This document shows, one piece after another, positions 30,003 to 40,401 of a DNA stretch of 64,000 nt. Location of the stretch: assembly GCA_036930585.1 (NCBI GenBank), contig GCA_036930585.1_3066.1, one strand, 5' to 3'. How positions within the stretch are numbered: position 1 is the first letter of the stretch; each line of letters opens with the position of its first letter. The notes below the pieces were generated by a model. That model was not told the DNA's origin, ran no database searches, and was given only the letters and a program-made list of their open reading frames with translations. The stretch is from a phage. A program made the translations under genes and the position numbers.

Positions 30003-30581
30003 TTAATTACCGCGGGCCGCATTAGCGACGGCGTAAGCGTACTGAACATTAGCGTCTTTAAACGTACCTTTAGAGGTATCTATTTCTGCCTTAAAGCCAC
30101 CTTTAGCCATAACATCGGCAAATTCTTTACGGAAAGCCATTGCATCAAGACCTTTCCATGATGATTTATGCTTGGCAAATTCAAGACCAGCGTAGTTGAC
30201 AGCTTTAGCTAATTTATTATCAATAACCCATTTACCGGCTTTAGGCACAAACTTCGGGCCTTTTTGTTTAGAGAACAGTTTTAAATTCCAGCGACGAAGA
30301 TCACTGTCGGCTTTAACAAAAGCTGCATCTAAGTTACTAGCAACAACATCTTCAATATGAGCAAATTTGAGTCCGTCAACTTCAATATTTAGATCGTTAC
30401 GCCAGCGAAGTCCTTCCCAAGCAAAGGCTTTAAAATCAGAAGCCTTTGTAGCTAAGTACCGTTCAATAGGAGCAGTTTTAGGGTCAAAGCCGTTTCCGCC
30501 ACGATAAGTCCACTCGTCCTTATTAATGCCTTGAGCTTTTCCTGCAAAGGCCTCGGCGATAAATTCTTTATACGTTTTCAT
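30003..30581 (-). CDS. ipIII: internal protein III-like (capsid-targeted)
   Basis: 192 aa; N-terminal MKTYKEFIAEA capsid targeting sequence; adjacent to e. Confidence 0.8.
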   Translation of the reverse strand: MKTYKEFIAEAFAGKAQGINKDEWTYRGGNGFDPKTAPIERYLATKASDFKAFAWEGLRWRNDLNIEVDGLKFAHIEDVVASNLDAAFVKADSDLRRWNLKLFSKQKGPKFVPKAGKWVIDNKLAKAVNYAGLEFAKHKSSWKGLDAMAFRKEFADVMAKGGFKAEIDTSKGTFKDANVQYAYAVANAARGN

Positions 30582-33659: not shown

Positions 33660-33992
33660 TTATTCTTCGTCCAATTCATCAATAAATTTATCGATACTAC
33701 TATTAATAGACTCATCGATGATTAACAAAGCATCATCATCCATAATATTAATATTTTCTAAAGCATCAATATAAGCTTGATTGACTATAGACCATGCCCT
33801 TTGAAAATATGGGGCTTCATCATCAGGACTGAACCAACGTACACCTTCAAAGATACGGTTAGCATAATCCAATACCCACTGTACAGGCATGTTTTGAGAA
33901 CGTTCGTTAAACTCTTTAAATTCCTTAGATTCAAAAAGCTCTTCGGGATAATAATTTCGATTACAAAAAGCTTTACTAAAGTTACGTTTCAT
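33660..33992 (-). CDS. hypothetical acidic protein
   Basis: 110-aa ORF. Confidence 0.5.
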   Translation of the reverse strand: MKRNFSKAFCNRNYYPEELFESKEFKEFNERSQNMPVQWVLDYANRIFEGVRWFSPDDEAPYFQRAWSIVNQAYIDALENINIMDDDALLIIDESINSSIDKFIDELDEE

Positions 33993-34047: not shown

Positions 34048-34323
34048 TTATTTCATATTATTGAAATATTCTTCTGCGATTTCATCGTTATCGTGGTAAA
34101 CTTTAGAAGACAGTTTAACATAACTTTCAGCTGTGAACATGTTAATCACAACCTTTACAGTATACCACTGACCATCTTCATTACCCATTACTGCGTAAGT
34201 TTCAAACATCGGATGATCAGGACCGATAACTTTAATATCATTCACTGTACGACCGAAATCTTCTGAAACACATTTCATAAAGAAGTTGAACAGTTCGCCG
34301 TAATTATCCATTTCATTCTCCAA
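34048..34323 (-). CDS. hypothetical protein
   Basis: 91-aa ORF. Confidence 0.5.
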   Translation of the reverse strand: MENEMDNYGELFNFFMKCVSEDFGRTVNDIKVIGPDHPMFETYAVMGNEDGQWYTVKVVINMFTAESYVKLSSKVYHDNDEIAEEYFNNMK

Positions 34324-34354
34324 GTTGTTTTCTGTATCAGTAGTTGATAGTTGT

Positions 34355-34384
34355 ATAGTACCATGGAAGAACAGGGATGTAAAC
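34355..34384 (-). promoter_or_regulatory. early-type promoter: GTTTAC, 18 bp, TACTAT
   Basis: motif read on minus strand. Confidence 0.6.
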
Positions 34385-34494
34385 AGTTTTGTGAAAAAAT
34401 TTTTAAAAAGTTTTAGGGAATTCTAGGGCAGGGAGGGGAAATCAAAGGATAGGATAATATATTATAAAGGGTATAAACTAAATGATGCCTAGAG

Positions 34495-34542
34495 AGGCCC
34501 GGAAAGGCCTAGATACCAAAAAGCCCTATCATTTAGATAGGG
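34495..34542 (-). terminator. two hairpins (aggcc-cggaaa-ggcct; ccctatc-attta-gataggg then TTTTT on minus strand)
   Basis: after stop of ORF 34551..35114. Confidence 0.55.
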
Positions 34543-34550
34543 ATTTAAAA

Positions 34551-35114
34551 TTATTTACCTAGTTTACTTATTATAGCTTCTGCAGCAGCTTTTAGCTTAG
34601 ATGCAGTGTTAATACGATTTTTAATTTCAGTATACGCATCGCCAAGAACATCAAGGCTATCAGAATAAACACTTACACTATTGCGTTCGCTATTTGAAAT
34701 AGAACCTTTAGTTTTGCGGTCAAAATCGGTGTACACGTCTTGAAGATCGCGGGCTGCCTTCTTTGCATCATCCAATGCATCAAGAGCTTTATTCAAAGCA
34801 TTAACGTATTTTTTAGTGTCGAACATATTCTTAGAAATTTTAACAGGTGCGCGTTCAGGAGTAGCTAACACAGATTTAGGAACCTGAGCGCCAGATGCCA
34901 ATTTCTTAGAAATTTTGAAAAATGCTTTATTGAATTTATTTTCTTGACTCATTGTAAAAGAACTATTATCGATGTTGTACATTTCAATAGCTTTAGCTTT
35001 CCACTTAAGAAAATCGCCGCGGTCTTTTGGGTCCAATTGGAAGAATACTTTAGTAAGATCTGCTTCAGATGGTAATTTTGCTGCTTCGGTTAAAAATTCG
35101 GCATAGGTTTTCAT
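34551..35114 (-). CDS. internal-protein-like protein with capsid targeting sequence
   Basis: 187 aa; N-terminal MKTYAEFLTEAA. Confidence 0.6.
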   Translation of the reverse strand: MKTYAEFLTEAAKLPSEADLTKVFFQLDPKDRGDFLKWKAKAIEMYNIDNSSFTMSQENKFNKAFFKISKKLASGAQVPKSVLATPERAPVKISKNMFDTKKYVNALNKALDALDDAKKAARDLQDVYTDFDRKTKGSISNSERNSVSVYSDSLDVLGDAYTEIKNRINTASKLKAAAEAIISKLGK

Positions 35115-35208
35115 TTAAAATCCTTGAAATAATTTATCGGTTGGTTATTAATTATTTATTACTTTGTTACTATCCGTAACAGCGTTATCCGAGTGATTCA
35201 AACTAAAA

Positions 35209-35232
35209 AGCCCCAACCTTTCGGTCGGGGCT
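35209..35232 (-). terminator. intrinsic terminator, copy 1 of a 34-bp repeat (actaaaaagccccaacctttcggtcggggctaag)
   Basis: hairpin plus T-run on minus strand, after ORF 35240..35713. Confidence 0.65.
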
Positions 35233-35239
35233 AAGAATG

Positions 35240-35713
35240 TCATTTGATTTGTTTAGCAGACCAAATGCGGTCTTTAATAATTTTTTGGATGTCTTCAACA
35301 TACTCAAGAGAGTGAACATGTGGATTATCTTTGAAACTATAAGCACGGGCTAACTTTTGGCCTTCGGTTTTGATTACTAAAAGCTCTTTAAGGATAGCTT
35401 CATATTTGGAGATAATTCCTTTAACAATATTTTTCTCTTGTGTGACTTTAGGATCTTCTTTAGGAGCAGGTTTACCTGAAGCCTTTGCAAAAGCAGCGCC
35501 AGTAGCAACTAAACTTTTCCAGGCCATACTAACTGCATTCCCTGTAAATCCTTCGGCTTTCATATCACGAGCAAATTGGAATCGTGATTCATCGGAAGCA
35601 TCTTTATAGGAATATTTACCCGCGGCAATGGCTGCTTTTGCGACAGCTTGAATTTCGGTGCTAGATGCTTCATTTAACACCGCTTCATTTAAAAATTGAG
35701 CATATGATTTCAT
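35240..35713 (-). CDS. internal-protein-like protein with capsid targeting sequence
   Basis: 157 aa; N-terminal MKSYAQFLNEA. Confidence 0.6.
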   Translation of the reverse strand: MKSYAQFLNEAVLNEASSTEIQAVAKAAIAAGKYSYKDASDESRFQFARDMKAEGFTGNAVSMAWKSLVATGAAFAKASGKPAPKEDPKVTQEKNIVKGIISKYEAILKELLVIKTEGQKLARAYSFKDNPHVHSLEYVEDIQKIIKDRIWSAKQIK

Positions 35714-35753
35714 CTTATTTCCTGTTTTAATTCGTGGTTTTAATATACTTATT

Positions 35754-35777
35754 TATACTAAAAAGCCCCAACCTTTC
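35754..35777 (-). terminator. intrinsic terminator, copy 2 of the 34-bp repeat
   Basis: identical to copy at 35203-35235. Confidence 0.65.
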
Positions 35778-35799
35778 GGTCGGGGCTAAGCCTTGCGGC

Positions 35800-36098
35800 A
35801 ACCTTGTCGGGGTTCCACCTGCTAAGGCAAGTGTTTGTACGAAACGCCGGGATTCGAACCCGGTTATTAAGCAGTTGACGCTACTCAATATTTTTAAAAG
35901 GCCATATCTCGACCATATCCGAACGTTCCGTCAAAAACGCTACTCGGCTTACGGCAAAGATATTTCCTCGAATCGATAATTCGGTGCGCCGTTTCAGCTG
36001 TGATGTAAGGGGACATTAACAGATCGTAAAGATTTGTTAATGCCAGTCCTTACCCAGGGAACATCAGTCCGACGACTTACCGGTAGCGACCCGGTTTC
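35800..36098 (-). ncRNA. candidate stable RNA / tRNA-like remnant
   Basis: ~300 bp with no credible ORF; perfect T-arm-like motif CCGGGTTCGAATCCCGG (35846-35862) but no matching acceptor stem; lies between the tRNA cluster and a terminator. Confidence 0.3.
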
Positions 36099-36449
36099 TT
36101 AATATTCTTTTAAAGCATCAATCTGTTCACGGCGTTTACGCCATAAATTAATTACTTCATAAGCGGATTCAGCATTTCGAATTGGTCGGCATTTATATAA
36201 AGACTTGCGATTTTGATATTGTGTAGATAACGGAATTTTATCTAAAAGGTCTTTACGTTCAAAGTATTCGTAACCATCTAAGCCAAATGAACGATTTTTG
36301 AGAAATTGCCAATGACCAAATTCGTTTTGAATATAAATATAATCCGCGTGTTGATAAAGTAAATTAATTTCACGAAATGAGATATGTTTTTCATATTCAT
36401 TGAAGTAAAATGTTAAATCATGAACTACTAAATAAACATTACCTTTCAT
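36099..36449 (-). CDS. hypothetical protein
   Basis: 116-aa ORF with GAGG SD, 18 nt downstream of tRNA-Arg. Confidence 0.55.
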   Translation of the reverse strand: MKGNVYLVVHDLTFYFNEYEKHISFREINLLYQHADYIYIQNEFGHWQFLKNRSFGLDGYEYFERKDLLDKIPLSTQYQNRKSLYKCRPIRNAESAYEVINLWRKRREQIDALKEY

Positions 36450-37421: not shown

Positions 37422-38030
37422 TTATTTATTACGTGAAAAAGACTGTTCTATCAATTCTGGACACTTTCGTTCTATCCATTTTCTAGCTTTTTGTGGGCTT
37501 ATACCTATTATTTTAGCAGCTTTACTAACCCATCCAAATTTAGAATAATCGATTTTAACTAATTCTTCGTAAATTTCATCAGTTAAAATCTTTTCATTAA
37601 TATTTACCAGTAAATGATATAATTTGTTATCATTAGCAATTTTAATGAATCTTTTATAGTTTCCGCCTTTACTTAAACCTAATGAAGTAATTGCAGATGA
37701 TATAGTAGCCGAATTTAATAATGCGTTTAAAATTTCTTCATCACTAACATTATAACGCTTTTTATTATTTTTAATATTTTTACCAGCAAAAGTATCAGTT
37801 TGCGAATGACAGTTTGGACATAATAATCTTAAATTTGATTTAAGATGATTTTTGTTATTTCCATCAATATGGTCTAATTGCAGAACAATATGCTTATTTT
37901 GCCATTTTGAAATTTTACAAATTGCACACTCATATGGAAAAATATTTTCTTTTATTATTTTGTCTTTCAGCTTTCCTGTACTAAAATTTGGATGTTTTCC
38001 TTCAAAAATTTCAGCTAATTTAGTATCCAT
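37422..38030 (-). CDS. HNH homing endonuclease (Mob-like)
   Basis: HNH motif HIDGNNKNHLKSNLRLLCPNCH; start set at internal ATG (track start is TTG). Confidence 0.85.
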   Translation of the reverse strand: MDTKLAEIFEGKHPNFSTGKLKDKIIKENIFPYECAICKISKWQNKHIVLQLDHIDGNNKNHLKSNLRLLCPNCHSQTDTFAGKNIKNNKKRYNVSDEEILNALLNSATISSAITSLGLSKGGNYKRFIKIANDNKLYHLLVNINEKILTDEIYEELVKIDYSKFGWVSKAAKIIGISPQKARKWIERKCPELIEQSFSRNK

Positions 38031-38140
38031 AATATGATTCCCAATTATTAACAAAGGCTCTCAAATAAGAACCCTTGATGATAGAGGGTATTAATCAGTG
38101 CGATATGAGTTAATAATAACAAATAATTCTTAAAGCATAT

Positions 38141-39017: not shown

Positions 39018-39045
39018 TTTATTCTCCTCAGTAGTAGATAGGGTA

Positions 39046-39075
39046 ATAGTATCACTACCCTATCTAAAAGTAAAC
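39046..39075 (-). promoter_or_regulatory. early-type promoter: GTTTAC, 18 bp, TACTAT
   Basis: motif read on minus strand. Confidence 0.6.
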
Positions 39076-39309
39076 TTATTTTTTACGAAAAATTGATTTA
39101 TTTTCTGCTGCCCATTTTTCAATAACTGCAGCAGGACCAGTAACAACAATTTTATCACCGTAATCTTCTGCGGCGAGTTGACCGAAATTATCTAATGCAT
39201 CACGAAGAACTCCATGAGGCATTTCACCCATTTTATCTTTCTTGCCAGTGTAAATAAACTCAACTTTTACATCAGCAGTTTCAGCAATAAATTCTTGGTA
39301 AGTTTTCAT
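39076..39309 (-). CDS. ipI: internal protein I-like (capsid-targeted small protein)
   Basis: N-terminal MKTYQEFIAE capsid targeting sequence; next to 57B as in T4. Confidence 0.6.
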   Translation of the reverse strand: MKTYQEFIAETADVKVEFIYTGKKDKMGEMPHGVLRDALDNFGQLAAEDYGDKIVVTGPAAVIEKWAAENKSIFRKK

Positions 39310-39343
39310 TTTGATTTCCATTTGGTTTTGTTTTGATAGGGTA

Positions 39344-39373
39344 ATAGTATCACAACTAAAACCCTATGTAAAC
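39344..39373 (-). promoter_or_regulatory. early-type promoter: GTTTAC, 18 bp, TACTAT
   Basis: upstream of the ipI-like gene. Confidence 0.6.
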
Positions 39374-39385
39374 AACTTTGTGAAA

Positions 39386-39643
39386 TTATTTTAAATCTTC
39401 TAATCGTTTCTTCATCTTAGAACCATTTTTAGCAATTTCTCCTGCATCGGAGCATAATGCTAAAAGTGCTTTAACTTTAGTTTGGTCTCCTTTAAAAGAT
39501 GAAGGATCGACCGCAGCAGCAAGTTCTTTAATACGAGAGAAAAGACGCTCAGCTTCAGCTAAAGCCATTCCAAGCTTTACTTCCATACCGTGGGAAGATT
39601 CAGTGATAGTAGTTTTTGTAGCAAACTCTTTGAAAGTTTTCAT
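39386..39643 (-). CDS. internal-protein-like small protein (degenerate targeting sequence MKTFKEFA)
   Basis: 85-aa ORF with own promoter. Confidence 0.5.
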   Translation of the reverse strand: MKTFKEFATKTTITESSHGMEVKLGMALAEAERLFSRIKELAAAVDPSSFKGDQTKVKALLALCSDAGEIAKNGSKMKKRLEDLK

Positions 39644-39674
39644 TTTTATTTTCCTAATTAATTTTGATGAGGTA

Positions 39675-39704
39675 ATAGTATCACTACCTCATCAGTATGT
39701 AAAC
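39675..39704 (-). promoter_or_regulatory. early-type promoter: GTTTAC, 18 bp, TACTAT
   Basis: motif read on minus strand. Confidence 0.6.
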
Positions 39705-39716
39705 AACTTTGTGAAA

Positions 39717-40401
<685 letters not shown>

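Follow-up and report, generated by a model that had tools for sequence, protein, structure and literature searches.

A duplicated terminator hairpin brackets an internal-protein-like gene cassette between rnaC and e.8 in T4-like phages

The DNA considered here is a stretch of 64,000 nucleotides (nt) from a phage (NCBI GenBank assembly GCA_036930585.1, contig GCA_036930585.1_3066.1), referred to throughout, at its full length, as the window. It comes from a Tequatrovirus, a T4-like phage, and its top match is Shigella phage KRT47 at 96% identity. A preliminary description, made from the sequence and its open reading frames (ORFs), pointed to two identical terminator repeats on either side of one gene, which it labelled an internal-protein (IP) gene, and proposed that such repeats can mediate gain, loss, or exchange of the enclosed gene. 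The repeat (T1) and the gene (ORF-A) are on the minus strand, as are the features described below. Along that strand come ten clustered transfer RNA (tRNA) genes, an ORF of 116 amino acids (aa), rnaD, rnaC, the upstream T1 copy (T1a), ORF-A, the downstream copy (T1b), a leader, a second gene (ORF-B), a second terminator (T2), and a spacer, followed by e.8, e.7, and e.6. The features of the interval and its borders are as follows.

35795..36098, minus strand: rnaC and rnaD homologs, with rnaC at about 35838-35976 and rnaD at about 35983-36100
35757..35790, minus strand: T1a, the upstream copy; hairpin at 35787..35764, U-run at 35763..35759
35750..35757, minus strand: late-promoter motif TATAAATA, 44 nt upstream of the ORF-A ATG
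35240..35713, minus strand: ORF-A, 157 aa, a homolog of RB32ORF133c, between the T1 copies
35202..35235, minus strand: T1b, the downstream copy; hairpin at 35232..35209, U-run at 35208..35204
35115..35201, minus strand: ORF-B leader, 87 nt, with the variant motif AATAAATA at 35160..35153
34551..35114, minus strand: ORF-B, 187 aa, the second cassette gene with a capsid-targeting sequence (CTS)
34518..34542, minus strand: T2, terminator of the ORF-B cassette, CCCTATC-TAAAT-GATAGGG followed by CUUUUU
34324..34517, minus strand: flank X, a conserved spacer that begins GGTATCTAGG; an early-type promoter for e.8 lies at 34383..34355
34048..34323, minus strand: e.8 homolog, a conserved gene that bounds the variable interval on the left

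The borders of the interval are conserved. The homologs of the T4 stable RNA genes rnaC and rnaD in the window are 98-100% identical to the annotated rnaC and rnaD of T4 and Aplg8, and flank X comes directly after the last terminator in every configuration described below. The rnaC-e.8 interval of T4 is a gene-free gap of 284 bp with one T1 copy right after rnaC. T1a of the window lies about 50 nt past rnaC, as in T4, and T1b begins 4 nt past the stop codon of ORF-A.

T1 is a 34-mer, ACTAAAAAGCCCCAACCTTTCGGTCGGGGCTAAG, with exactly two copies in the window by exact match (35202-35235 and 35757-35790), 555 nt apart from start to start. The copies are identical at 34 of 34 positions, bases outside the stem included. 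A search that allowed up to three mismatches finds no third copy in the window, and the imperfect similarity between the two reaches 40 nt at 95% identity (repeat family D3). The preliminary description thus had the sequence and the number of copies right, as well as the 157-aa minus-strand ORF at 35240..35713 that they enclose. It began the first copy at 35203, one nucleotide off, and placed the second at 35748-35780, which is 9-10 nt too low and ends within the copy. Folding agrees with its account of a hairpin and T-run on the minus strand at each copy. Both copies form AGCCCCGACC-GAAA-GGTTGGGGCT followed by TTTTT, a GC-rich stem of 10 bp with seven GC pairs and one G.U pair, capped by a GAAA loop. 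In 56-nt contexts the minimum free energy is -20.6 kcal/mol for one copy (z-score -4.0) and -24.9 kcal/mol for the other (z-score -5.2), and the copies take the top two ranks among terminator-like sites in a scan of 32-39 kb.

A U-run lies directly 3' of the stem in both copies and in every homolog. T1 therefore combines the traits of an intrinsic terminator, namely a GC-rich stem-loop, an adjoining U-run, and a position at the 3' end of a transcription unit. The ARNold program has a terminator annotated at the position equivalent to T1b in the D5505 and G9062 records, and an ARNold annotation is also found in Aplg8. T1 is accordingly a predicted intrinsic terminator, and we infer that it ends transcription. 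Because the single copy of T4 directly follows rnaC, T1 is by its position the predicted native terminator of the tRNA/rnaD/rnaC unit. The preliminary description had allowed that the repeat may simply be a reused terminator; this is true as well, and it does not exclude a part in recombination. Among the loci fetched for comparison, the 5' arm of T1 varies at stem positions 7-8 (GA, AG, AA, or TT, in loci L007, L008, L013, L006, L015, L017, and L025) and the 3' arm, GGTTGGGGC, is invariant. The GA and AG variants are both fully paired, by way of G.U opposite TT. An Rfam scan matched tRNAs alone, with no family for the T1 hairpin or for rnaC/rnaD.

Intrinsic terminators are alike in general form, and a hairpin scan of IMG/VR returned five loci of which one, L005, is an unrelated contig with similar hairpins. 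Chance or convergence of independent GC-rich terminators might thus be invoked for the likeness of the T1 copies. That explanation is already refuted for all practical purposes, given an identity that extends to bases outside the stem, the lack of any T1 match in 100 dinucleotide-preserving shuffles, and the recurrence of the T1 pair at homologous positions in dozens of genomes. L005 itself (IMGVR_UViG_3300032282_001984) carries two tandem T1-like hairpins 44 nt apart in the final 80 nt of a 5.2-kb contig, one with an exact core and one with 3 mismatches, and its flanks are unlike the rnaC-e.8 locus.

Comparison of the rnaC-e.8 interval in 25 related loci reveals four states, all of whose boundaries are a hairpin and T-run.

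Empty (T4, PST, ACG-C40): rnaC - T1 - GGTATCTAGG
A only (RB32, PP01, JY01, JLBYU31, Aplg8, JK1, RPN226): rnaC - T1 - (A/G)GTATAAATA..A..CATTCTT - T1' - GGTATCTAGG
B only (G4498, Pu-Krd-SF5): rnaC - T1 - AGTTTGAATCAC..B.. - T2 - GGTATCTAGG
A+B (window, KRT47, ECML-134, D5505, G9062, OES_C-2, S2_01): both cassettes joined end to end

Genomes without gene A have one T1, and genomes with gene A have two. Subtraction of one 555-nt T1+A unit from the A+B state gives the B-only state, and subtraction of the T1+A unit from the A-only state gives the empty one. The single-copy junctions are exactly the product that would be expected from recombination between the T1 copies (T1 x T1). Across the phage collection, approximate record counts are 681 for rnaC, 470 for A, 165 for B, and 128 for the A-B junction, which imply rough shares of ~50% A only, ~19% A+B, ~5% B only, and ~25% neither. 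A third cassette was considered for Shigella phage S2_01, where hits to the A-B junction query fell into two pieces spanning 743 nt; the layout is the ordinary A+B one, and the second query piece is the other T1 copy.

Gene A also varies where it is present. It occurs in at least three allelic lineages, plus mosaics, that are 74-85% identical in nucleotides between flanks that are 93-99% identical; in JK1, for example, the A allele is 77% identical and the flanks 94-99%. Such diverged alleles between conserved flanks point plainly to gene exchange. The search of relatives that the preliminary description had proposed, for the repeat and for variants that lack or replace the gene, thus finds empty intervals, B-only intervals, and diverged A alleles. 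This is the opposite of a repeat that is single everywhere beside a gene that is always present, and together with the single-copy junctions it bears out the suggestion of repeat-mediated gain, loss, or exchange as far as sequences can.

These observations are probably best explained, with a probability of about 0.8, by a terminator-bounded cassette for late expression, in which the duplicated terminator supplies the homology for precise loss and recombination in the flanks aids gain and exchange. The ORF-A cassette would comprise the late promoter TATAAATA abutting the T-run, a ribosome-binding site, the gene with its capsid-targeting leader, and a terminator copy. Stacked behind it would be a further cassette built in the same way, that of ORF-B, which ends in a terminator of its own, T2. 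Since each cassette would start and end exactly at a hairpin and T-run, it could be added or removed without disturbing transcription of its neighbours. The T1 copies form a pair of direct repeats, each of 34 bp, at a spacing of 555 nt; a copy-choice event or homologous recombination from one to the other would remove one repeat and ORF-A exactly. Gain or swapping would proceed by the reverse event or by double crossovers in the conserved flanks at co-infection. In this model, T1 x T1 recombination, beyond flank recombination alone, probably made the variants. The four states, resolved to the base, are a ready assay for cassette loss by polymerase chain reaction (PCR) across T1.

The same arrangement extends beyond Tequatrovirus. 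The Mosigvirus phages mogra and KMB38 have a T1-like hairpin on each side of A. In the Klebsiella Jiaodavirus Nispero, an ORF-A homolog (MKFKEFLAE/A, where the slash here and below marks the end of the leader) lies directly past the tRNA cluster, and upstream of it stands AGCCCCGTC-TTCG-GACGGGGCT-TTTTT-AGTATAAATA, a hairpin and promoter of the same design with the inner stem and loop changed. The unit of terminator, late promoter, and CTS gene is thus old in the Tevenvirinae, and the downstream T1 duplicate is specific to the Tequatrovirus/Mosigvirus lineage. Because ORF-A sits at this place in Tequatrovirus, Mosigvirus, and Jiaodavirus, the empty state of T4 would most simply have arisen by deletion.

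Several points weigh against a leading role for the repeat. The flanks, e.8 with the spacer on one side and rnaC/rnaD on the other, offer hundreds of bp at 93-99% identity and serve recombination much better than 34 bp could; the present distribution may therefore reflect one or a few old events spread through the flanks. Gene A of the window is itself a mosaic with a crossover inside the gene, at ~35400-35500: between T2 and ~35400 the window matches D5505-type genomes exactly (zero differences over 34600-35400), and it has 0-1 differences per 100 nt from Aplg8 over 35500-35990, through rnaC. Since this crossover is internal to gene A and not at T1, hairpins are not privileged crossover points, and the idea that they are preferred ones was ruled out. 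Gain or loss of the ORF-B cassette would need T1 x T2 recombination, and the 9 nt of GGGCTTTTT are the sole sequence common to T1 and T2, whose stem is AT-richer. The terminator downstream of the gene in Nispero is unrelated to T1, so the gene can occupy this site without a direct repeat around it. Covariation in the hairpin amounts to one compensatory pair that is not separable from shuffles; it was dropped as proof of the hairpin and kept as a sign of preserved pairing, with 94.5% of cells paired across 11 hairpin variants from three genera. Lastly, the flank trees used below come from short alignments without bootstrap. Between alleles, ORF-A varies in its N-terminal half, and Tequatrovirus and Mosigvirus share a conserved C-terminal half.

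On such grounds the repeat could be just a reused terminator: every cassette requires one, and the copy behind ORF-A would be a relic of the gene's arrival, with presence and absence spread by flank recombination in mixed infections and T1 x T1 recombination playing no part. Co-conversion driven by homing endonucleases, encoded by segB or HNH genes of the neighbouring tRNA cluster, would possibly help; many relatives have one or the other there, and the window has an HNH gene at 37422..38054. The long, nearly identical flanks, the mosaic breakpoint within gene A, and the retention of the gene without a direct repeat in Jiaodavirus all speak for this account, which we nevertheless regard as unlikely. 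The base-precise single-T1 junctions of the empty and B-only states still require at least one event at the repeat, and T4 is known from experiment to delete and amplify between far shorter repeats of 6-10 bp, with losses of ipIII among the deletions (PMC9391042). The three empty and two B-only genomes are dispersed over the neighbour-joining trees of both flanks, and on both trees the nearest neighbour of every one of them is an occupied genome. The GACC and AGCC variants of T1 are found in either copy position, depending on the genome, which is compatible with exchange between the copies. The cassette model with loss through T1 remains preferred, and within it general recombination in the long conserved flanks must, judging by the sequences compared, contribute strongly to the spread of states. 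The main uncertainty is the share of variation that stems from repeat-mediated as against flank-mediated events.

The products of both genes resemble internal proteins at their N-termini and in their likely timing of expression. TATAAATA matches the T4 late-promoter consensus (PMC1524935, PMC2988020) perfectly and begins 2 nt past the U-run of T1a, and it has the same position in 18 of 18 A-bearing Tequatrovirus loci examined and in Nispero. Ten of 11 ORF-B leaders have AATAAATA at -46, a late-promoter variant with A at -13; nine of 50 listed T4 late promoters have A at that position (PMC2988020). These motifs suggest late expression of ORF-A and ORF-B. The N-termini are MKSYAQFLNE/A in ORF-A and MKTYAEFLTE/A in ORF-B. 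In the CTS of IPIII, residues 4 and 7 serve targeting and residues 8 and 10 processing, and the gp21 protease cuts after (L or I)-X-E (PMC9026906). Y4, F7, L8, and E10 are kept in both proteins, as is a gp21 motif followed by alanine (L-N-E/A in ORF-A, L-T-E/A in ORF-B).

A CTS-type leader is found in just four ORFs of the window, and the two others occupy the classical IP loci: the IPIII-like ORF at 30003..30581 (MKTYKEFIAEA, 192 aa) and, in the ipI locus, the IpVI-like ORF at 39076..39309 on the minus strand (MKTYQEFIAET, 77 aa), the former likewise on the minus strand. An Ip5 homolog (39643..39386) has a more divergent leader, so that the strict CTS-leader ORFs number at least four, with this homolog in addition, in three loci in all. 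It is a reasonable inference from leader and late promoter that ORF-A and ORF-B are internal proteins, and their products would probably be packaged and injected. The IP label of the preliminary description therefore agrees with the leader and promoter of ORF-A, but the site, rnaC-e.8, is neither of the described IP loci, denV-e and trna.4-57B.

Beyond the leader, little connects the two proteins with each other or with anything characterized. ORF-A and ORF-B gave no significant match in Pfam, NCBIfam, PDB sequences, or Foldseek. AlphaFold2 models are all-helical, with a predicted local distance difference test (pLDDT) score of 74.5 for ORF-A and a low-confidence 62.3 for ORF-B; that of ORF-A is predicted to have two helical domains joined by a Lys/Pro-rich linker. 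Homologs of ORF-A are confined to T4-type phages, and every one is labelled hypothetical. PHROGs places ORF-A and ORF-B together in phrog_2280, a family of unknown function. This, the common 11-residue leader, and the 76% identity of 42 nt around the start codons might suggest that they arose by tandem duplication of one gene with its terminator, the repeat being a leftover. This origin is very improbable and was rejected. BLASTP finds no similarity between ORF-A and ORF-B outside the 11-residue leader, ORF-B has a different terminator in T2, and A-only genomes already hold both T1 copies without ORF-B, so that the second T1 belongs to the A cassette. The 42-nt direct repeat (35083-35124 and 35682-35723, family D4) runs over the ribosome-binding site and into the CTS-coding start of each gene, ORF-B at the first position and ORF-A at the second. 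Through this second short homology, CTS genes could exchange their mature parts.

A broader reading is more tentative, and we give it somewhat less than even odds. It holds that the site past the rnaC terminator is a third IP locus of the T-even phages, where CTS cassettes stack, the terminator acts as the landing and excision site in the manner of a late counterpart to the promoter/stem-loops discussed below, and the proteins are injected inhibitors of host defences. The internal proteins of T-even phages act as injected anti-defence factors. Those of T4, Ip1, Ip2, and Ip3, inhibit GmrSD-type restriction enzymes, a different one in each case (PMC12373910); by analogy, ORF-A and ORF-B would act on host defences of this kind. 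Gain and loss of anti-defence genes shift host range (PMC9391042). About two in three records of Tequatrovirus and Mosigvirus carry the candidate genes of the third locus, which also occur in Jiaodavirus. If ORF-A and ORF-B are indeed packaged, the IP loci would number three, up from two, and a pair of widespread candidate anti-defence proteins would be added. The locus is in any case a clean natural example of IP-like genes kept as plug-in units, in which transcription signals double as cassette boundaries and as homology for recombination.

Other polymorphisms lie nearby. Just upstream of the tRNA cluster, 37422-38054 (minus strand) encodes a 210-aa HNH endonuclease (phrog_14736, E 6e-124) that is absent at the matching place in eight of eight compared genomes and is probably a homing endonuclease insertion; T4, PP01, RB32, and PST instead have segB inside the cluster. 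The 116-aa ORF between rnaD and tRNA-Arg (36099-36449, minus strand, phrog_3355) is 88-98% identical in some relatives and absent in T4, JLBYU31, G9062, PP01, and RB32, another presence/absence polymorphism that adjoins the rnaC-e.8 one. The e.7 position (33660-33992, minus strand) is variable too. The window and KRT47 have an e.7-like gene of just 79% identity, the gene is absent in D5505, G9062, OES_C-2, and S2_01, and in RB32 an unrelated ORF "replaces e.7".

The closest known case is the same locus in RB32. The GenBank entry of that phage (DQ904452, 2006) already describes a gene "flanked by 34 bp imperfect direct repeat", and sequence comparison identifies RB32ORF133c as gene A and the RB32 repeat as the T1 pair. 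The 157-aa proteins are near-identical, and the T1 pair and the e.8-rnaC site are the same. The RB32 copies differ at two positions (GACC versus AGCC), whereas those of the window are identical, and RB32 has A only where the window has A+B. The record gives the product as "hypothetical", is silent on the rnaC terminator and the CTS-like leader, and also lists a 43-bp direct repeat around Ip7 and Ip9.

Two further systems share parts of the design. The deletions that Srikant et al. (2022) describe in T4 (PMC9391042) likewise take place between direct repeats that flank non-essential, often anti-defence genes such as ipIII; those events were experimental and used microhomologies of 6-10 bp, whereas here the repeat is 34 bp and loss is deduced from natural variants. 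Morons (Hendrix et al. 2000, as summarized in PMC2839356) are also lone accessory genes with their own promoter and terminator between resident genes. In that summary they are thought to enter by illegitimate insertion without conserved flanking linkers, whereas homologous terminator repeats match the indel boundaries here.

The nearest mechanistic relatives are the promoter-early and promoter-middle stem-loops (PeSL and PmSL) of the Krisch laboratory (Arbiol et al. 2010; Comeau et al. 2014), which mark indel boundaries, recombine, and excise cassettes as mini-circles (PMC2839356, PMC4122927). Like T1, they are composites of terminator and promoter, intergenic in hyperplastic regions, at the boundaries of insertions, deletions, or replacements between close relatives, and they are proposed linkers for homologous recombination and cassette excision. 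T1 lies at just such indel and replacement boundaries. PeSLs, however, have sigma70-like early promoters and PmSLs MotA middle promoters, whereas the T1 locus has the late-type TATAAATA, and a promoter scan found no early sigma70-like promoter adjoining T1a or T1b on the minus strand. PeSLs number ~50 dispersed copies per genome, in contrast to two copies of a strong GC-rich terminator in 64 kb, and mini-circles have been demonstrated for PeSLs, whereas the T1 locus is known here from sequences alone. T1 works like a PeSL, then, but is not a member of the family, for it lacks two defining features, the early promoter and the many dispersed copies.

The PeSL authors see the root of the idea in the polymorphic IP loci that Repoila et al. 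described in 1994 (PMC2839356, PMC4122927). As described there, T-even IP loci resemble the present one in their small non-essential genes with a capsid-targeting leader, varying in number and identity and separated by repeated regulatory motifs. The classical loci (denV-e and trna.4-57B) are described as having AT-rich, early-promoter repeats with weak stem-loops, in contrast to the terminator repeats at rnaC-e.8. The window's own ipI locus shows this PeSL-like architecture, with ~71-nt AT-rich repeats at 39033-39103, 39331-39401, and 39662-39732 (61-87% identity), each of which contains a weak stem-loop and a promoter of early type (GTTTAC...TACTAT). On the minus strand, one repeat apiece precedes a trna.4-like ORF, the IpVI-like ORF (39309..39076), and the Ip5 homolog (39643..39386). 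Since the repeat is in GenBank and the mechanism published, the rnaC-e.8 locus is a good example but minor as a discovery. According to Arbiol et al., T-even genomes have no IP genes outside the two IP loci (PMC2839356), a 2025 paper still speaks of two (PMC12373910), and the literature searched holds no mention of CTS-bearing genes between rnaC and e.8. Set beside these systems, the new element is modest: a third locus for internal-protein-like genes, arranged around a late promoter and a strong terminator where the classical loci have early promoters and weak stem-loops.

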